Assembly (NCBI RefSeq): GCF_004010195.1
Contig: NC_057719.1
Coordinates: forward strand, 3,393,536-3,428,670
Length of the DNA: 35,135 bases
Origin: Chiloscyllium plagiosum
Taxonomy: Eukaryota
Reading direction: 5' to 3'
A program made the translations under genes and the position numbers. This document shows, piece by piece, positions 1-29,140 of this stretch. The stretch's first letter is position 1; each line of letters opens with the position of its first letter. Below the pieces are notes generated by a model. The model did no database searches and had not been told where the DNA came from. It saw nothing but the letters and a program-made list of their open reading frames with translations.

Positions 1-272
1 GGAAAGATATAAAAGAGACCTAAGGGGCACCTTTTTCACGCAGAGGGTGGTATGTGTATGGAATTAGCTGCCAGAGGATGTGGTGGAGGCTGGTACAATT
101 GCAACATTTAAGAGGCATTTGGATGGGTATATGAATAGGAAGGGTTTGGAGGGATATGGGCCGGGTGCTGGCAGGTGGGACTAGATTGAGTTGGGATATC
201 TGGTCGGCATGGATGGGTTGGACTGAAGGGTCTGTTTCCGTGCTGTACATCTCCATGACTCTGTGACTCTAT
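1..272 (+). mobile_element. CR1 LINE 3' end (ORF2 C-terminus, 3' UTR and tail)
   Basis: FFTQRVV-type coding remnant (ttcacgcagagggtggta), GGACTGAAGGGTCTGTTTCC 3' motif and (ATGACTCT)-like repeated tail. Confidence 0.9.
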
Positions 273-352
273 AACACATGACTGCCTAGCAATAGTGCTT
301 ATTTTTCCCCAGCATCCATATCATGTGTGCGCGGGTACCCACCTGGTTATAT

Positions 353-479
353 TTTTAAAAGTTTTTCTTTATTAAACAGTACAGCTCACAAACAATTAGC
401 ATGAACAGCTGTATACAGAGAAACAACAATTTATACGGGACAGGAGTGGCAAAGCCAAGCCCTAGACCCCCCATCCCCC
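353..479 (-). mobile_element. 3' tail of a non-LTR retroelement, with AATAAA and A-rich end; homologous to 17390-17493
   Basis: Minus strand GGCTTTGCCACTCCTGTCCCGTATAAATTGTTGTTTCTCTGTATACAGCTGTT...CTGTACTGTTTAATAAA aligns with plus strand GGCTTTGCCACTCCTCTCCATTGTAAATTGGTGTTTCTCCATATACAGCTGTT...CTGTATTGTTTAATAAA near 17410-17485. Confidence 0.8.
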
Positions 480-536
480 CCAGGTTATATATCCGGTTTG
501 TTGCAGTGAACTTTGACACAGCACAATCCACACAAG

Positions 537-618
537 TGGCCGCAGAAGGGTTTGAACCCACTCCTTCTTTCAGACTGGAACCTGAAACCAATACCTTCCA
601 CCACTCACCAATGCTACC
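537..618 (-). pseudogene. tRNA-Leu-derived pseudogene or SINE head (82 nt, CAG at the anticodon position)
   Basis: GGTAGCATTGGTGAGTGGTGGAAGGTATTGGTTTCAGGTTCCAGTCTGAAAGAAGGAGTGGGTTCAAACCCTTCTGCGGCCA aligns without gaps to vertebrate tRNA-Leu(AAG/TAG) type (GGTAGCGTGGCCGAGCGG...GGTTCGAATCCCACCGCTGCCA). Mismatches in the acceptor, D and T stems argue against a functional tRNA. Confidence 0.85.
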
Positions 619-688
619 AGCCATCCCACCTGGTTGTATGTATTTTTTCCTGGTAACATTTTAAAAATGTTATTAAACAATACTCTAC

Positions 689-780
689 CTGGTTATATTG
701 GTCGACCAGGGCTTTCCTGATTGGCGGAGATTAACAATGACCTCATAGTTAACAAGTTCCACCTCGTCCCAATCGCTACT
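689..780 (-). mobile_element. 5' part of an LTR (CCAAT and TATA-like region), same family as 15589-17626
   Basis: Minus strand AGTAGCGATTGGGACGAGG...GCCAATCAGGAAAGCCCTGGTCGACCAATATAACCAGG aligns with TGTAGTGATCGGAACGAGG...GCCAATCAGGGAGCCCTGGCTGACAGAT at 15589-15688. Confidence 0.75.
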
Positions 781-1049
781 GGAACAAAACACATGTGGTG
801 GAATCGGGTTGCTGCAATACTGACAAAAGTGGTTGCCAAAAACAGATTTGATGGGCTATTAGAATCATTCTAAGGTGTGGAGCTAAATCATTTTGAGCTG
901 TTATAGCAGCCGAACAGGCATAGTCTTCTGTGCTGTGAGATTCCAACTCTTTACAAAATAGAGAGAGAGAGAGAGAGTGAGAATGAGGTCAGAATAAATG
1001 CAAAATCTTGCAAGCATGTCAAAGGTTAGATATGTGTGGAAATAGAAGT

Positions 1050-2395
1050 TGTCCAGTACCTGGAGATGGTACTGAGGGATAAAATCTATTTGTATTTGGA
1101 AAATAATAGGTGCATCAGTGATAGGCAACATGGTTTTGTACAGGGGAGATCGTGCCTTACCAACTTAATAGAGTTCTTTGAGGAAGTGACCAAGTTGTTA
1201 GATGAAGGAAGGGCTGTAGATGTCATATACATGGACTTTAGTAAGGTGTTTGATAAGGTTCCCCATGGTAGACTAATGGAGAAAGTAAAGTCACATGGTG
1301 TGCAGGGTGTTCTAGCTAGGTGGATAAAGAACTACTTGAGCAACAGGAGACAGAGAGTAGTAGTTGAAGGGAGTTTCTCGAAATGGAGAAAGGTGACCAG
1401 TGGTATTCCACAGGGGTCAGTGTTGGGGTCACTGTTGTTTGTAATATACATAAATGATCTGGAAGAGGGCACTGTTGGTATGATCAGCAAGTTTGCAGAT
1501 GACACAAAGATTGGTGGAGTAGCAGAAAGTATAAGGGGACTGTCAGAGAATACAGGAGGATATAAATAGACTGGAGAGTTGGGCGGAAAGTGGCAGATGG
1601 TTTTCAATCCAGACAAATGTGAGGTGATGCATTTTGGGAAGTCTAATTCTAGAGCCAACTATACTGTAAACAGGGGAGCCTTGGGAAAAGTTGATGAGCA
1701 GAGAGATTTGGGAGTGCAGGTCCATTGTACTCTATGGGTGGATAGAGTAGTCAAGAAGGCATTTGGTATGCTTGCCTTCATCGGACGGGGTATTGAGTAT
1801 AAGAGCTGGCATGTCATATTAAAATTGTACACGATGTTGGTTCAGGTGCATTTAGAATACTGTGTACAGTTCTGGTCGCCACATTACCAAAAGGATGTGG
1901 ACGCTGTGGAGAGGGTGCAGAGAAGGTTTAAGAGGATGTTGCCTGGTATGGAAGGTGCTAGCTATGAAGCGAGGTTGAGTAGGTTAGGATTGTTTTCATT
2001 AGAAAAAAGGAGATTGAGGGGGGACCTGATTGAAGTCTACAAAATTATGAAGGGTATAGACAGGGTGAATAGAGACAAGCTTTTTCCCAGGGTGAAGGAT
2101 TCAATAACGAGAGGTCACACTTTCAAGGTGAGAGGTGAAAAAGGATAAACGCGGCAAGTACTTCACACAGAGGGTGGTGGGTGTTTGGAATGCGTGGCCA
2201 GCAGAGGTGGTAGAGGCAGGCACGGTCGATTCATTTAAGATGCGTCTGGACAGATGCGTGAGTAGGTGGGGAGCAGAGGGATACAGATACTGAGGGATTG
2301 ACCAACAGGTTTAGACAGTGGATTTGGATCGGCTCAGGCTGGGGGCCGAAGGGCCTGTTCCTGAGCTGTAAATGTTCTTTGTTCTTTCTTCTTTG
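1050..2395 (+). mobile_element. 5'-truncated CR1 LINE with reverse transcriptase domain
   Basis: ORFs 1036-1569 and 1579-2148 contain [43 protein letters not shown] and HLEYCVQFWSP; 3' UTR ends in a TGTTCTT-type tail. Confidence 0.97.
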
Positions 2396-8200: not shown

Positions 8201-9014
8201 CGAGTGACCCCGGCTTCTGGACGAAACATCCTTTCCATGTCTATCTTGTCAAGTCTCTTCAGGATCTTCAGTCAATCTTCAATCAAATCACCCCTCACTC
8301 TTCCAAAGTGGAAGCTGTTCTCTACTATAATTGGCACACGTTGCATTGGGAGTGTGTCCCTTTATGAGGTGAGTCATGTGATATTGATGATGTTCAACGT
8401 TTTACAGAGTGCACGGCATGGGAATTCAATCCTCTCTATTGGGTTGCAACAAGTGACGAGTTTGTTCTTAATTCTGAATGGAGCTGAGTATCTGCCCAGT
8501 ACAGAGTAGAAGCAAACCCATTCTGCTCAACCCTCCTCAAAGGACAATTCCACTCACTCTCGGGATCAGTCTCAGAACCCACTGCTGAACAGTCCCCAAT
8601 ACATTTATATCCTTCCTTAAGCAAGAAGAACAAAATTGAACACAGTGTACAGGATGTATTCTCACTGGTGTCCTGTAACACCAAAGCTAAGCTGTGCTGG
8701 AAATTTACAATACACCTCACACCCAAAGAGAGAGAGGGCTGGAGGTGTTTACAGAGACTTGGGAGGACTGTACAGGTTTGAGGTTAGGACAGGGACCCGG
8801 AGGGAGTGAAGGCTCAAGGAGGCATGCCTGTCATTGTGTTGTCGAAGGATTTCAGATTATCAGCAGCCTGACATGTGGGAGGGGCTTACCGAGATCTCCT
8901 GGTTAGAAAACGAAATTGTAGGTAATGTCACTGGGAGCTAATGTCGGTGAAGGAGCAAACAGATGATTGGGGAAAGGAATTTTGTGCAGGTGAGGAGACA
9001 GGAAACAATATGAG

Positions 9015-9138
9015 AGAGTGAGGTCTGCAGATACTGGAGATCAGAGTCTAGAGTGTGGTGCTGGAAAAGCACAGCAGGTCAGGCAGGTCAGGAGCAGAAG
9101 GATCGATATTTCGGGCATAAGCTCTTCATCAGGAATGA
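9015..9138 (-). mobile_element. Penelope terminal fragment with degenerate hammerhead motif
   Basis: Minus strand TTCCTGATGAAGAGCTTATGCCCGAAATATCGA; same family as 35003-35135. Confidence 0.8.
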
Positions 9139-9989: not shown

Positions 9990-10903
9990 AGAAGTCACAC
10001 AACACCAGGTTATAGTCCAACAGGTTTATTTGAACTCACAAGTTTTCAGAGTGTTGCCCCTTTATCAGATGAAGTGAAGAGAATCACTCAGGCACAGAAT
10101 TTATCATCAGAGAGATGAAAAGATCAGACAATCTTTTTGAGTGGAGTGTCCATAGGCTGAATAATAAGTCTCTGCAGGTGACCAAGAGTGTCAGACTATG
10201 TGAGTAAAGTGTTAACAGCTGAATGGTAAGTGAAGAGATTACTTATAATCTGGCTAACTGAGGCAGAGAGACAATTATAAAAAAAAGTAAAATAAGGTGA
10301 TGCTGGAGACAAACCAAACAGCTGGAATGACATGATCAGTATAAGACTTGGGCGGCACGGTGGCACAGTGGTTAGCACTGCTGCCTCACAGCGCCAGAGA
10401 CCCGGGTTCAATTCCTGCCACAGGTGACTGACTGTGTGGAGTTTGCACGTTCTCCCCGTGTCTGCGTGGGTTTCCTCCGGGTGCTCCGGTTTCCTCCCAC
10501 AGTCCAAAGATGTGCAGGTCAGGTGAATTGGCCGTGCTAAATTGCCCGTAGTGTTAGGTAAGGGGTAAATGTAGGGGTATGGGTGGGTTGCGCTTCGGCG
10601 GGGCGGTGTGGACTTGTTGGGCCGAAGGGCCTGTTTCCACACTGTAAGTAATCTAATCTAATCTAATCTACTAAAGACTCATATGCTGAGGGTCTAACCA
10701 AAATAACAAGTAATCCAAAACTGTACAAACTAGTTTAGGTAGTGAGATCGCAACAAGTTATCAAGTTGAAGGTGTCAAAACAGGAACGTAAGGAGGATTT
10801 TACAGAACAGTATGGTGGGCTTATACATAGCGTGACATGAACCCAAGATCCTGGTTGAGACTTGTCTTCATGTGAATGAAACTTCGCTATCATTCCCTGC
10901 TCG
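9990..10903 (-). mobile_element. 5'-truncated Penelope-like element (GIY-YIG C-terminus and 3' UTR)
   Basis: Minus strand 10902-10821 translates EQGMIAKFHSHEDK/LNQDLGFMSRYV* (one frameshift); degenerate hammerhead CTGATAAAGGGGCAACACTCTGAAAA near 10045-10070; terminus CCTGTTGGACTATAACCTGGTGTTGTGTGA. Confidence 0.8.
10350..10670 (+). mobile_element. Full-length, young-looking HE1-type SINE inserted in Penelope
   Basis: GGGCGGCACGGTGGCACAGTGGTTAGC A box, GGTTCAATTCC B box, intact CpGs, (AATCT)n tail, and AAGACT on both flanks. Confidence 0.95.
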
Positions 10904-12089
10904 GGGGATGATACCCCTCAGGATTGGCTATCCGTTTCTGCTCGGGGGATGATACCCCTCAGGATTGGCTTTCAGTTTCTGCTCAGGGAGATGATACCCC
11001 TCAGGATTGGCTATCAGTTTCTGCTCAAGGAGATGATACCCCTCAGGATTGGCCATCAGTTTCTGCTCAGGGGGATGATACCCCTCAGGATTGGTTATCC
11101 ATTTCTGCTCAGGGAGATGATACCCGACAGGAGTGGCTATCCGTTTCTGCTCAGGGAGATAATACCCCTCAGGATTGGCTATCAGTTTCTGCTCAGGGGG
11201 ATGAAACCCTTCAGGATTGGCTATCAGTTTCTGCTCGAGAGATGATACCTCTCAGGATTGGCTATCAGTTTCTGCTCGAGAGATGATACCTCTCAGGATT
11301 GGCTTTCCGTTTCTGCTCGGGAGATGATACCACTCAGGAGTGGCTATCAGTTTCTGCTCGGGAGATGATACCCCTCAGGATTGGCTATCCGTTTCTGCTC
11401 GGGAGATGATACACCTCAGGATTGGCTATCAGTTTCTGCTCTGGGAGATGATACCCCTCAGGATTGGCTATCAGTTTCTGCTCGGGAGATGATACCCCTC
11501 AGGATTGGCTATCAGTTTCTGCTCAGGGAGATGATACCCCTCAGGAGTGGCTATCCTTTTCTGCTCAGGGGGATGATACCCCTCAGGATTGGCTATCAGT
11601 TTCTGCTCGGGGGATGATACCTCTCAGGAGTGGCTATCAGTTTCTGCTCTGGGAGATGATACCCCTCAGGATTGGCTATCAGTTTCTGCTCAGGGGGATG
11701 ATACCCCTCAGGATTGGCTATCCGTTTCTGCTCAGGGAGATGATACCCCTCATTATTGGCTATCAGTTTCTGCTCGGGGGATGATACCCCTCAGGATTGG
11801 CTATCCGTTTCTGCTCAGGGAGATGATACCCCTCATTATTGGCTATCCGTTTCTGCTCAGGGAGATGATACCCCTCAGGAGTGGCTATCCGTTTCTGCTC
11901 AGGGAGATGATACACCTCAGGATTGACTATCAGTTTCTGCTCAGGGAGATGATTCCCCTCAGGATTGGCTATCAGTTTCTGCTCAGGGAGATGATACACC
12001 TCAGGATTGGCTATCCGTTTCTGCTCAGGGAGATGATACCCCTCAGGATTGGTTTTCAGCTACTGCTTGGGGGATGATACCCCTCAGGA
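10884..12089. repeat. Minisatellite, about 29 copies of a 41/42-bp unit
   Basis: Unit TTGGCTATCAGTTTCTGCTC(A)GGGAGATGATACCCCTCAGGA; 29 GATGATACC-type cores counted by eye. Confidence 0.97.
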
Positions 12090-14857: not shown

Positions 14858-15702
14858 TTAGAATCATGGAGGTAGAGTCCTTTGTGCAATAGCACTCAAA
14901 TTTGTTCAACTATTCCCTATTTGTTTGTACAGAAACTGAGAGGGTCATTTTATTAACCCATTGGCCACCAATATCACAAACTCATTGAGCCTGAAGACTT
15001 GCCTGTCTACCTAGCCCTTTCTATATGGTCATTCAGGTACAAACTCCTATCTCCTCAAGATAAAGTCTACCCCCCGAACAGAGCAGACCCCTCATCATGG
15101 TATTGACATGTGCCAAGATCAAACTCACTGCAAGGTAGACACCCCTCAAGATGTCTATCACCTCCTCCATGGAATATAACCCAACATTGGGATCATCTCC
15201 CCCAGCCCAGATAATATATTGCCCCCAAAGATTTATGAGACCCCTCCACAAGATGCCAACACTCTCCAAATCCTCCCTTTTCTGCCTCCCCAAATCCTCC
15301 CTTTTCTGCCCCTTTCAGGTTGTCCAATGGCATGATTTTCCCAACCTTTGAGGTCAGGGAACATCAGGAAGGCAAATTTTGCGGAGGATACAAAGATGTA
15401 AAGAAATACAGGCAAGTTAAGTGAATGGAGTAACATTTGGCAATGGAATGTTATGTGTGGAAATGAAATGTTGTCCACTTTGGCAGGGAGAACAGAAAAA
15501 CAGAATATTATTTGGATGGAGAGATATTGCAGAATGCTGCAGGACAGAGGGATCTGGATGTCATTATACTTGAATCATAGAACATTGATGTAGTGATCGG
15601 AACGAGGGCCTGGTAGACCTCATTGACCATGAGATCCTTGATTGGGGTGGTTAACCTGGGCCAATCAGGGAGCCCTGGCTGACAGATGGAAATTGGAAAT
15701 TC

Positions 15703-15819
15703 CGTAGTGTTAGGTAAGGGATAAATGTAGGGGTATGGGTGGGTTGCGCTTCGGCGGGGCGGTGTGGACTTGTTGGGCCGAAGGGCCTGTTTCTACATTG
15801 TAAGTAATCGAATCTAATC
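15703..15819 (+). mobile_element. 5'-truncated HE1-type SINE
   Basis: Near-identical to 10546-10660 (ccgtagtgttaggtaaggg...gggccgaagggcctgtttc). Confidence 0.9.
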
Positions 15820-15907
15820 ATTTCCGGTTCTTTAAGAAAAAGAAAAAAAAAAGAAACAGGAGATTCAAAAAGTCTCCTGATTCTAGGGACTGACTCTGGG
15901 CTGGCTG

Positions 15908-17493
15908 GGCCACAGTGAGTGTGTTACTGTTGTTTTTGGCTTTGTTTGGGAGTACTGGATTCTTAAACTGGCTGGTTTACAAAGCCAGTTTTGTTAACTT
16001 TTTATATTGAGAACTGATTTCTAAATTGCTTGATCCACACGGTCAATGTGTTTCAGGTGTAACTCAGTTTTGCATTGGTAAACTGTTGTCTCACTGGCTG
16101 GTTACAGCTTGTGTTACTCTTTTCTCTTTTGCTTTGAGAAAAGGACAATGTTGATTTTGTGGCAGGGCTTAGCCCTTGCATTTTGTTTTTATTTGTTTTT
16201 TTGTATGTGTCCTTACTGTTTTTTGGTGTTTGGACTTAGCCCTTGTGCGAAAATCTTTCCAGATGAACTGTTCCTGTGGGTAGGCCTGACCCTGTGACTA
16301 GGCCTCGGTAAAGACTGAACACCTGTGTGAACACTTGCTGTATCCTGGAGTTTGGGAGTAGACCCTTCCTTCGGGAGTGGACCAAACCCCTGAATTAACT
16401 GCACCTTCACAATGTACTGTGTTCCTGTGAGTGGGCCTGGTTCTCCAAGGATGGGCCAGGTCTCCATGGAGACTGAACACCTGTGTCTGTGCTGTGGAGT
16501 GTGTATTTGCTGCCTTCAGGAGTGGACTCTGCCCTTGGTTGTAGACTGTTTTTAGCAATGGACACTACAGTTTGGAGTGGACTCCATTTCTGACAATGCA
16601 TTTTGTATACTGGAGTGGACTCTGTTCCTGGGAATGGACTCCATATTTTGAAGAGAACCGTTTATGGTAATGGACTCTGTGTACTAGAAGGGACTCTGAT
16701 TGTTGATAATTGACTCTGTTTTGTTGCTTGTTGGGTTTATCACCTGGGTCCCTGGGTCTTGTGTCCCTGGGTCTGACAGGCCTTACTGTGAGCTGGGAGG
16801 CTCAAAGCTGTCATCCCGAGAGCCAGAGGGTTGATAGGCCATTCTGAGCGCTGTTGTCCCGAGAAGGGGTGATCAGGACGGGCTGTCCTAGAGGTGGGCG
16901 GAAGATGTGTCAGAGCAGCCGAAAGCCAGAAGGTGCGAAGGGGCAGGCTGAGATCCGGAAAGCTTGTGGGCTACCCTACGCGCCATCATCCCAGGGGAAG
17001 AGGACGGGCTGTCCTAGAGGTGGCTGGAAGGTGTGTCAGGGCAATCCATAGGCTGGATGGCGCATCGAGGTGGGTGAGAGCCCAATGGTCTGTAGGGGCA
17101 GACCGAGAGCCGGAAGGCGGGCAGGCCGTCCTCAGCGCTGTCACCCCGGGCGGGTACCGAGACGGACTGCCCTAGAGGTGGCTGGAAGGTGTGTCAGGGT
17201 AGACCGAGAGCTGGAAGGGGCATAGGGGCGATTTGCCTTTGAGTGGCCGGAAGGTGGGAGGGATGGGTGGCTTGCTGGGGGAGTCTGTGTTATATGCATT
17301 GTTTCTCATCTAGTTAGACTGTCTTGTATGTATTTGTTACTGATCCTTTTGTGATGACTTGCCCCCCTTTCCATGAAAACTGGCTGAACAGTGGGGTTTG
17401 GGGTCTGGCTTTGCCACTCCTCTCCATTGTAAATTGGTGTTTCTCCATATACAGCTGTTAATATTAACTGTATTGTTTAATAAAATAAAAAAA
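15908..17493 (+). mobile_element. Non-coding non-LTR retroelement segment (long 3' UTR-like; possibly L1/Tx1 clade)
   Basis: T-rich sense strand, internal TGGACTC(T) repeats (16370-16720), three GG(G/A)CTG(T/C)CCTAGAGGTGG repeats (about 16880, 17007, 17164), ends in AATAAA plus A-tail, flanked by a 55-bp direct repeat. The clade is an inference because there is no ORF. Confidence 0.65.
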
Positions 17494-17889
17494 GAAACAG
17501 GAAATACAGAAAGTCTCCTGATTCTAGGGATTGGCTCTGAGCTGGCTGTTCAGAGCCTATGAACTGTGCACATGTAAATAAAGGGAGACTTGGTGATGGA
17601 ATACTGACCTCTGCATACTTATTTCAATTAGCTTGCAAGGCACAACAAACAACTAGGAAAGCAAATGAAATGGTGGCTTTTATTATAAAGGGATGGAATC
17701 CAATAGTAGGGAATTCCTGTTGCTATTGTACAGGGTATTGGTGATGTCACAGCCAGAGTAATAAAACAGTGCCAGTCCCCTTGTTTAAGGAGGCACATAC
17801 ATGCACTAGACGCGTTGAATGTTCCTGGGATGAAGGAGTTAATTTATGAAAAGTTGACCACGTTGGGCCCTTCCTCTTGAGAGTTCATC

Positions 17890-21846: not shown

Positions 21847-22025
21847 TTATTTTGTTGCCTGGTCTGAAGTCAGGTTTCAGCTCAATGTCGCTGTTACGGA
21901 GTGCCCCGGGGTATTTTACTTTGTTCGAGGCACCACTAAAATTCAGCTTGTTGTTGTGCCCTGAGTACAGAGTTGAGAGTTTTTAATGTAACTGTGCATC
22001 GCTAGACTTGGGTGATGTCCATTAC

Positions 22026-23202
22026 CTGGTAGGGGAGTGTTCTCGTTGGCTGAATGATGTGTGGCCCGTTTCTTTCTGTGCGGTTTGCTCTGGGATAAGC
22101 AGAGCTCCTTCTCCCCGGCGGCTCTCTGTTTGCTCTGGGATGTGACCGGTGAGTGCTCACCCAGTTTCACACTGAACTGGAGGAGGTGCTCCTTCGGCAC
22201 CTTGGGCTGGGAGCCCCGGGGCTGGTGGTGCCGGGATCGTCGGCACACGTGTGCCCGTTGTGATGGTTTGGTTTGCGGCTGGGCTTTGGTGCCTGGTTGC
22301 CGACTGTAGCGATCTGGGCTCTGGGAGGCCGGTTTAGGTGTCACCGGGCAGCTCCCTGCGGTGCACCTGTGCTGACTGAGGGGTCGGGCGTACTGCTCCT
22401 GGCCCAGCTCAGAGATCTGCGGCCCGGCCTGGTGTATTCGGCCGTCAGCCTGCTGGGGACCACCTTCAAGCAAACGCCCTTCCTCGTCCCGATCCGAGGT
22501 AGGCTCAGACTTCCTGCCTTGGGAACAGCCCTGTTGCTGGCTTCCCTCCTGCTGCTCCTGGGTTTCCTCCTGAGACTGCGCCTCACCGTCTTGTAGACCA
22601 TTGGCAGTTGTCCACTGCTGGGTTTGGTGCTGTACCTGACTGCAATGATGTGGCTTCAAGTCAGGTGGTTGGTCCTTTGGGCTAGACGAGTATTGGCCCA
22701 GATGGTGGCACTGACAGTGAAGCCATCCACCCTGTTGACACTGGTGTTCTTGATCTGGGTAATGCATCAGGGTGTCCAGTAACTGGCCTTGGTCTGCCTG
22801 CGAATCTTGCTGTGAGCAATGAGGCTGATGATTGAGCCACTGACCGTGCAGACAGTGCTGTTTCTGAACTCTGGGCCATCCGGCCTGTGGACTGGACCAG
22901 TCGTCATTGGCGTTGTACCCTGGATCTTCAACCTGCTGGAGCTGGGAATGCTGCAGTTGCTGGTCTCCACAAGCCTGATGGTCGAGCCACTGGCTCTGGG
23001 TGCCCTGGCGTTTTGTGTCCGGCTGGGTCACTTGGTAACCGGCCCACTCCTGGTCTGGGTGCTGAGGCGGACTGTGAGATTGTTGAAGCTTTTTGCCAAT
23101 GCTCTGCAACTCCTCCAGCTGCTCGGGCAGCCAGTGACTCTCCGTCCCAGCCAACTGGCACTCCGGCCTCTCTATAATTCCCATCTCCTCCGGTTTTGTG
23201 TT
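22026..23202 (-). CDS. Exon D (1177 bp, phase 0 to 1), Q/H/S/P-rich low-complexity region
   Basis: Stop-free GC-rich frame (413-aa ORF 21943-23184, extended upstream by NTKPEE); acceptor ctttgtcatttgctttgttcag|AAC, donor CAG|GTAATG at 22025; a same-phase alternative donor ACG|GTGAGG lies at 22586. Confidence 0.85.
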
Positions 23203-23324
23203 CTGAACAAAGCAAATGACAAAGACACTTTAGCTTGTTCTGTCCGAAACGCCGACCGCTTTAGCACAGAAAATGAAACAATCCCTGCTGTAAGAGGTAA
23301 AGGAAAATACTCGTTTTGTCAGAC

Positions 23325-27117: not shown

Positions 27118-29140
27118 AAGAACATAACAGCGCAGTACAGGCCCTTCAGCCCTCGATGTTGCACTGACCTGTGAAACCAATTTGAAGCCCATCTAACCTA
27201 CACTATTCCATTTTTGTTCATATGTTTATCCAATGATCAATTAAAAGCCCTTAAAGTTGGCAAGTCTACTACTGTTGCAGGCAGGCTGATCCACACCCTT
27301 ACTACTCTCTGAGTAAAGAATCTACCTCCAACATCTGTCCTATATCCATTACCTCTCAATTTAAAGCTATGGCCCTTCATGCTAGCCATCACTTTCCAAG
27401 GAAAAAGCTCTCATTGTCCACCCTATTTAACCCTCTGATTATCTTATATGTCTCAATTAGGTCACCTCTCAACCTCCTCTCTAATGAAAACAGCCTCAAG
27501 TCCCTCACACTTTCCTCATAAGACCTTCCCTCCATACCAGGCAACATCCTTGTAAATCTCCTCTGAGCCCTTTCCAAAGCTTCCACATTCTTCCTACAAT
27601 GCGGCGACCAGAACTGTATGTAATACTCCAAATGCGTGCTCACCAGAGTTTTGTACAGCTGCAATATGACCTCGTGGCTCCGAAACTCAATCCCTCTACC
27701 AATAAAAGCTAACACACTGTATGCCTTCTTAACAACCCTATCAACCTGGGTGGCAACTTTCAGAGATCTATGTACATGAACACAGAGATCTCTCTGCTCA
27801 TCCACACTACCAAGAATCTTACCATTAGCCCAGTATTCTTTATTCCTGTTGTTTCTTCCAAAGTGAATCACTTTACAATTTTCTGCAATAAACTCCATTT
27901 GCGATCTCTACAGATGTCTCTCTGTGACCTGCAACATCCTTCAGCACTATCCACAACTCTACAACCTCAGTGTCATCCGCAACTTGACTAACCCATCCTT
28001 CTATGTCCTCATCCAGGTCATTTTATAAAACTGACAAATAGCAGGGGACCCAAAACAGATCCTTGCGGTACACCACTAGTAACTGAGCTCCAGGATGAAT
28101 ATTTCTCATTAACCACCACACTCTGTCTTCTTTCAGCTAACCAATTTCTGATCCAAAGCACTAAATCACCCTCAATCCCGTGCCTCCGTATTTTATGCAA
28201 TAGACTACCGTGGGGAACCTTATCAAAGACCTTACTGAAATCCATATACACCACATCAACCACTTTACCCTCATCCACCTGTTTGGTCACCTTCTCAAAG
28301 AACTCAATAAGGTTTGTGAGGCATGACCTACCCTTCACAATTCTGTGTTGACTATCCCTAATCAACATATTCCTCTCTGGATGATTATAAATCCTATCTC
28401 TTATAATCCTTTTCAACAGTTTATCCACAACCAAAGTAAGGCTCACTGGTCTACAATTTCCAGGGTTATCTCTAATCTCCTTCTTGAATAAGGCAACAAT
28501 ATTTGCTATCCTCCAGTCTTCTGGCATTATTGCTGGAGGTAGTGATGGCATAAAAATAAGGCTGGCATGGTGGCTCAGTGGTTTGCACTGCTGCCTCACA
28601 GCACCAGGGTCTTATGTTCAATTCCATCCTCGGGCGACTGACTGTGTGGAGTTTGCACATTCTCCCCGTTTCTGCGTGGGTTTCCTCCGGGTGCTCTGGT
28701 TTCCTCCCACAGTCCAAAGATGTGCAGGTTAGGAGAATTGGCCATGCTAAATTGCCCAAAGTATTAGGTGTGTTAGTCAGAGGGAAATGGGACTGGGTGG
28801 GTTACTCTTCGGAGGGTCGGTGTGGACATGTTGGGCTGAAGGGCCTGTTTCCACACTCTAGGGAATCTAATCATAAAGATCCAAGCCAAAGGCTTGGCAA
28901 TCTCCTCCCTGACTTTCCAGAGAATCCTAGGATAAATACCATCCGGCCCAGGGGACTTATCTATTTTCACACTTCCAGAATTGCTAACACCTCCTTAAAC
29001 TTCAAACCAGTCCAGTCTAATAGCCCGTGTCTCAGTATTCCCCTCGACGACATTGTCATTTTCCAGTGTGAATACCAACGAAAAATATTCATTTAGTGCC
29101 TCTCCTCTCCTCTGACTCCACACACAACTTCCCACTACAG
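27118..29140 (-). mobile_element. 5'-truncated CR1 LINE with RT, interrupted by HE1
   Basis: [54 protein letters not shown] and HLEYYIQFWSP. Confidence 0.97.
28560..28872 (+). mobile_element. HE1-type SINE nested in CR1
   Basis: TGGCTCAGTGG A box, GTTCAATTCC B box, AATCTAATC tail; CATAAA(A/G)AT on both flanks. Confidence 0.92.

Follow-up and report, generated by a model that had tools for sequence, protein, structure and literature searches.

Tx1-clade families that target LTRs, and non-autonomous partners that share the target of a LINE, are already known (PMC4494074). The crocodilian families Tx1-8_Crp and Tx1-4_AMi prefer LTR retrotransposons (Kojima 2015, PMC4494074) and in this resemble the LINE that is termed family B in the present study. 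In the main text of that account, neither a position within the LTR nor a TATA site, arrays or LTR-derived heads are mentioned for them, and the head of Tx1-4_AMi is described as U1-derived, which sets it apart from the LTR-derived heads found here (PMC4494074). Similarly, the non-autonomous elements SINEU-1/2/3 have a transposon target in common with Tx1-Mar LINEs, and transcription from the flanking target sequence has been proposed for them; as in families A and B of our study, tandem copies sandwich a target site duplication (TSD) and heads have been added repeatedly, but the target is a Mariner DNA transposon and the heads are snRNA-derived (PMC4494074). Family A further differs from SINEU in its length of 1.6 kb, its LTR-derived head and its sense orientation behind a Pol II-type promoter. 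The named protein closest to family B is that of Tx1L from Xenopus laevis (YTX2_XENLA; 61% in the RT region, 42% in the endonuclease), which likewise has an APE-type endonuclease, described as specific, and inserts into another transposon; this target, however, is the DNA transposon Tx1D and not an LTR (PMC1950540). In the R1 and R2 elements of 28S rDNA, the target-derived 5' end of the transcript is reported to anneal to the target, and R1 makes 14-bp TSDs; these elements belong to other clades, use another target and rely on homology upstream of the nick, whereas the heads described here copy downstream sequence (PMC2718515). Finally, HeT-A and TART of Drosophila telomeres form head-to-tail arrays, and their full-length copies carry a repeat of 3' sequence at the 5' end; the promoters of HeT-A are array-borne (PMC5537684). 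Searches of the freely accessible literature returned no account of the shark system described below or of a TATA-box LTR target, nor any description of an LTR-derived head on a long passenger or of a renewal of heads from target sequence that lies downstream.

The window analysed here is a stretch of 35,135 nucleotides of Chiloscyllium plagiosum (contig NC_057719.1), in which an initial annotation had described two copies of one LTR family, one on each strand, that carry a common tail and might have been hit repeatedly at one promoter site by a target-specific, possibly Tx1-like, non-LTR element. Both LTRs and both tails are present (Table 1, loci A and B). The target site GAAACAGG occurs at 15853 and once more at 17494 and thus brackets a family A copy, the first ~55-70 nt of which duplicate LTR sequence located 3' of the target site. 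The additional A-run that had been noted to reach the site at this locus was found by sequence inspection, as was the very short tail remnant between the target sites of locus A. The five target motifs reported for locus A do exist, but the first of them spans 698-688 rather than 699-689, one base off, and only the first and the last are exact 11-mers, the other three being degenerate. Overlooked were the full-length element, its LTR-like head, a tRNA-Leu retrocopy and a family B tail. The retrocopy, which has six relatives, was called by ARAGORN at a relaxed threshold and not at the default. A 3' LTR half was not found in the sequence searched downstream of locus A, and an Rfam scan of window positions 250-900 returned one mir-137 match, which was judged to be due to chance.

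Table 1. Features of the two loci in the window (positions refer to the whole stretch).
Locus	Feature	Positions	Strand	Remarks
A	5' half of host LTR with CCAAT	699..780	-	
A	Target site 1, exact ATATAACCAGG	688..698	-	
A	Family A tail remnant of 14 nt and A/T-rich end	659..683	-	remnant at 683-670
A	Target sites 2 and 3, degenerate, flanking an insert that is A-rich only	629..658	-	sites at 658-649 and 639-629
A	tRNA-Leu gene retrocopy with flanks, between target sites	495..625	-	tRNA part ~536-618; ARAGORN, relaxed threshold
A	Target site 4, degenerate	480..490	-	
A	5'-truncated family A copy with A-rich tail	353..479	-	
A	Target site 5, exact	342..352	-	
A	Family B 3'-end remnant	290..336	-	81-85% to the B tails of loci L146 and L143
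B	5' half of host LTR	15589..15701	+	TG start at 15589, CCAAT at 15661, TATA word decayed here; 85-91% identity to 29 other loci
B	Unrelated SINE fragment (family D11), later insertion beside the target site	15702..15819	+	97% to window 10546-10663
B	Very short insert, A-run at its end abutting the target site	15820..15852	+	A-run 15834-15852
B	Target duplication and LTR-like head of family A	15853..15922	+	89% to 17494-17548
B	Full-length family A copy, ~1.6 kb, non-coding, internal repeats, AATAAA then A-tail	15853..17493	+	
B	Family A 3' tail	17390..17493	+	stretch named in the initial annotation
B	Target site and 3' half of host LTR	17494..17626	+	AATAAA; CA end at 17626

The tail was searched for elsewhere, yielding 849 candidates of which 40 were scored and 30 fetched, leaving 29 non-self loci. 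The LTR 3' half lies downstream of the tail on the same strand in 22 of these 29, the 5' half lies upstream within 1.5 kb in 8/29, and either LTR half or the site motif is present at 26/29; among the three tails that lack a scored LTR or motif, visual inspection places L013 clearly off target and leaves L026 in doubt. A 9-mer core of the site, sought within 50 nt after the tail, follows family A tails exactly in 17/52 cases and with at most one mismatch in 34/52, counts that are pooled from tail sets taking in loci fetched with LTR or partner queries; in the subset of family A loci picked by the tail the corresponding values are 8/27 and 19/27. Family B tails are followed by the exact core in 36/116 cases and with one mismatch in 74/116, many of the misses being long A-runs that overrun the 50-nt window of the test. 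Among controls, the core was found exactly or with at most one mismatch in 14 and 115 of 1246 tiles of the window, in 1 and 9 of 94 A-rich tracts, and in 1 and 3 of 38 ends of an unrelated SINE. In addition, the 5' and 3' sites of one insertion differ on average at 3.1/12 nt compared to 4.5/12 for shuffled pairs, a difference reached in 0/10,000 permutations (n = 21, including mis-paired rows). A position-weight test placed 14/50 A tails, 33/138 B tails and 4/38 SINE ends above the 95th control percentile; it was dropped, and the core-motif count used instead, because it had been built only from type-a LTR sites and thereby penalised those of type b. Insertion of the tail is therefore real, site-specific and beyond chance: the 3' flanks are non-random, and the proposal of repeated hits at a single LTR promoter site is borne out.

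It might still be argued that the site is just a hot spot, created by a relaxed L1/Tx1 endonuclease together with A-tails that draw in more inserts, so that arrays build up at a word that is abundant in the LTRs, with no real sequence specificity. The site is indeed A/T-rich and tolerant of mismatches, the exact core following only about a third of the tails, many types of cargo are found there, and one inverted family B insertion with a 13-bp duplication sits at the 5' end of an LTR (L117). Against this, one position was hit in 11 of 29 LTRs, the LTR 3' half follows most of the tail-picked A loci, the word is missing from other A-rich tracts and SINE ends, and Tx1L, the nearest named relative, is described as having a sequence-specific endonuclease (PMC1950540). 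We therefore consider a hot spot of this kind improbable.

The host LTR was approached independently by its 5' half, a search with 1705 first-look candidates of which 40 were scored and 30 fetched, 29 of them besides that of the window itself. Eighteen of these 29 loci are empty, that is, unbroken through the target site (one of the 18 ends short further on), while the remaining 11 are filled by insertions at exactly the TATA-like word. Empty LTRs measure ~200-232 bp, have TG...CA ends and contain CCAAT, the TATA-like word and AATAAA; their 5-bp flanks match at four or more of five positions in 6/19 own pairs vs 5/342 cross pairs. At L154, and at this locus only, a decayed RVT_1 domain followed by RT_RNaseH (PF17917, E 1.6e-12) is located 3' of the LTR in Gypsy order. 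As assigned from the LTR ends, the duplications and the RT-RNase H order of that single locus, the host is probably the LTR of a Gypsy-type (Ty3/Gypsy) retrotransposon. At least two LTR subtypes, type a and type b, differ 3' of the target site. Based on its position among the motifs, the target word is presumably the TATA box of the host LTR.

Since the tail is absent from the 18 empty LTRs, it is not an integral part of the LTR and lies outside its consensus. This also bears on the idea that a few ancestral insertions were multiplied along with the LTR, or that the tail belongs to a long LTR variant. Such a history could account for the few 5' junctions that recur at unrelated loci (L154/L155, L229/L231, L214/L234); yet these recurring junctions lie in different host LTR variants, as expected of RNA-borne heads. 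Furthermore, 85 B-type starts are spread over reference positions 72 to 1103, the duplications are locus-specific, and a single ancestral insertion is contradicted by 5' junctions that vary from copy to copy and by duplications that match the local LTR variant. Thus, this explanation is largely refuted and is given hardly any weight.

Family A, which bears the tail, is a ~1.6-kb non-coding retroposon with a poly(A) tail. The longest stop-free frame of the window copy comprises 100 codons, the best tblastn match of five full-length copies to Tx1 proteins was no better than E 0.15, and no ORF was found within family A or upstream of its tail in any copy examined, so that the expected recovery of an ORF2 by extending tail copies in 5' direction failed. 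Lacking both an ORF and Tx1 protein homology, family A is classed by its sequence as a non-autonomous passenger and not as the LINE itself. Copies are truncated at many different points, and the word duplicated on either side of them is that of the surrounding LTR variant; where junctions are clean, the target duplication measures ~12-17 bp. With a target in common with the LINE, an A-tail, TSDs and 5' truncations, family A appears to fill a SINEU-like role; it is, however, not a classical SINE, given its length and a head that matches LTR sequence.

The LINE that would serve this passenger is family B, which occupies the same target site and was found in 9 of the 11 filled LTRs. Near-full-length copies of ~7 kb encode, in broken frames, a CCHC-like ORF1, an APE endonuclease, an RT and a zf-RVT domain. 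These domains (Exo_endo_phos, E 3.9e-8; RVT_1, down to E 7e-36; zf-RVT, below the cut-off) were pieced together from separate broken copies, an intact ORF2 being seen in none, and the zf-CCHC of ORF1 scored E 0.002-0.005 in two copies, under the curated cut-off. The RT is 61% identical to Xenopus Tx1 ORF2 over the full query, compared to 43-49% for teleost relatives, and groups with Xenopus and turtle Tx1 with support of 100/99 in a 20-row tree with CR1 as its only outgroup, no L1 row and a bootstrap that had not fully settled; the endonuclease matches that of Tx1 at E 2e-60 (42%) and that of human L1 at E ~1e-16. The phylogenetic placement of APE and RT that the initial annotation had called for is thereby provided, and its Tx1 guess holds for the system by way of family B, but not for the tail family itself. 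Family B has a poly(A) tail, 5' truncations and TSDs, and its target preference lies above the level of >20% of flanks that Kojima uses as a criterion (PMC4494074). Judged by these features, it is a LINE of the Tx1 clade, apparently with two ORFs, and a candidate autonomous partner of family A. [quoted passage not shown] The inverted family B fragments of L117 may mark a second, minor target.

Families A and B are not the only cargo. An intron-less copy of the RPS19 mRNA with its 5' UTR and a short A-tail sits at the LTR site between duplications (L058:975-1409, minus strand), tRNA-Leu copies are found at the site both in the window (625-495) and at locus L211, and bare A-runs likewise occupy it. 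All of these are stacked head to tail in the sense direction of the LTR, with site copies of ~12-17 bp in between, and families A and B alternate inside single arrays. The range of cargo points to a recruitment in trans that is based on poly(A). Clear homology between the tails of A and B was not found, so it is the common site that ties B to A as its driver; taken together with the RPS19, tRNA-Leu and A-run inserts, the alternation of A and B suggests that B is the likely mobiliser of A in trans. Two further kinds of insert were observed. At L008 (oriented 1395-1625) a tRNA-like head, for which ARAGORN gave no call and which we take to resemble tRNA-Arg, is joined at the site to the tail of family A and may represent a chimeric insert. 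A third non-coding type with an A-like tail and a different body is present at the same site in L101 (oriented 8390-9040) as well as in L017 and L198.

Thus, it is hypothesized, with a probability of roughly 0.8, that family A is a non-coding retroposon which is inserted at the presumed TATA site of the LTR in trans by the Tx1-clade LINE family B. By analogy to the biochemistry of Tx1L and L1, the APE endonuclease of B would nick the bottom strand at the left, A/T-rich border of the site, and any poly(A) RNA could then be reverse-transcribed from the exposed T-rich end. Cleavage of the second strand ~15 bp downstream would then remake the site on both sides, which is what would allow arrays to grow. 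The cDNA end might anneal to homologous DNA near the nick, either the LTR or an earlier insert, and thereby renew the head. The LTR promoter upstream would likely drive transcription, which would often read through the array.

The 5' ends are informative in this respect. Full-length family A copies begin with about 55-70 nt of type-a LTR sequence from just 3' of the site, and in one subfamily (L160, L175, L176, L185) an extra piece of type-b LTR is located in front; in L005/L165 a family A copy carries a 43-nt head that is tandemly repeated about five times. One subfamily of B starts with ~55-60 nt of LTR sequence from the same position that is of type b. A search for such LTR-headed B copies gave 897 candidates; 11 of the 20 fetched run on for more than 300 nt into the 5' region of B, and in three an intact CCAAT/TATA half immediately precedes the head. 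In the other B subfamily, 30-957 nt from the end of B's own ORF2 and 3' UTR precede the 5' UTR in 29/30 loci; this head always ends at the same ~45-nt repeat, and nine heads start no more than 12 nt from the beginning of that repeat. With 10/12 loci scored, the 5' repeat mismatches the 3' end of its own copy at 0.084 and those of other copies at 0.087; a jump in cis onto the 3' end of the same element, as in TART, was therefore ruled out, and the 5' repeat of B is no perfect non-terminal repeat of the TART kind. At L100 (G000:C18), the 45-nt repeat is the exact point at which two B copies are joined head to tail, an arrangement expected from LTR-like recombination or from homology joining upstream.

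Where do the LTR-derived heads originate? A first comparison of heads with flanking LTRs, in which the LTR filter was too strict, yielded five pairs and no signal (p 0.2-0.6). A rerun with a looser filter gave 17 pairs among 31 loci, including L233, which is not a true LTR end, and the poorly placed L223, and here family B heads resemble the LTR in which they lie more closely than the LTRs of other loci (p = 0.001, n = 17). Nevertheless, the own LTR is the best match in only 4/17 loci, and a type-b head lies in a type-a LTR in five, indicating that the head is often RNA-borne up to the site itself. For family A, L016 and L191 display the type mismatch in the reverse direction, and an odd LTR variant present on either side of L234 reappears, within another LTR, as the head of L214. 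At L146, the 5' junction is identical, over the ~44 nt that follow the site, to an older insert located further downstream and then switches to younger sequence. We infer that heads in some cases derive from the local target and in many were already borne by the RNA. If a head is RNA-borne up to the site, transcription must start further upstream, as a start 25-30 nt past the adjacent TATA cannot yield it; the simplest source would be an LTR promoter whose transcripts run through the array and then anneal upon integration. A common 5' start is shared by 21/113 pairs within arrays vs 92/3457 pairs between loci, and some of the repeated junctions may be tandem duplications at the DNA level (L076, L097, L190). 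In L218, L220, L223, L224, L229 and L231-L233, B heads are followed by ~100-150 nt of 5' UTR and then an A-run; these 3'-truncated inserts were perhaps primed at an internal A-rich tract.

The heads suggest homology-joined 5' ends and a borrowing of the LTR promoter. More tentatively, and in our estimation at less than even odds, they could reflect a promoter-parasite system of a Tx1 LINE and a passenger, neither with a promoter of its own, for which the LTR provides landing pad, promoter and 5'-end template; as part of this proposal, and held with the same reserve, the target-copied head would rebuild an LTR-like junction of promoter and start. Rather unlikely, if somewhat less so than a simple hot spot, is that family A is driven by an unseen Tx1 family or is the internally deleted derivative of one, transcribed from its own internal promoter, so that the head is a frozen relic of a single ancestral insertion without a role in transcription. 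The missing homology between A and B would be explained in this way; A copies are ~80% alike and B copies ~90%, so that A looks older, and the head is often element-borne. In contrast, no A tail examined has an ORF upstream of it, A and B alternate in single arrays, and heads have been gained repeatedly, namely type a and an extra type b on A and both type-b and self-derived heads on B, which does not fit a relic. Mobilisation by family B thus remains our preferred explanation.

Given this reading, the system is a vertebrate example, well sampled, in which an APE-type LINE would read a single ~15-bp word in a Pol II promoter and accept any poly(A) RNA as cargo. The many dated junctions make second-strand priming at LINE 5' ends and the transcription of site-specific LINEs testable, and should the target be the source of renewed heads, this step can be read directly from the arrays. 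For the host LTRs, about a third of which were hit in this sample, insertion at the TATA word is predicted to disable or redirect them.

Other repeats were observed elsewhere in the window. The RT fragments that served as the tree outgroup, presumably from a CR1-like LINE, are located at 1030-2148 (plus strand) and 27389-28611 (minus strand), and the longest stop-free frame, 428 codons and Gln-rich, spans 21943-23229 on the minus strand. A 42-bp minisatellite of ~29 copies with 90% matches occupies 10886-12089, and a family of 69-70-bp tandem repeats is arranged in two blocks between 19142 and 20514.
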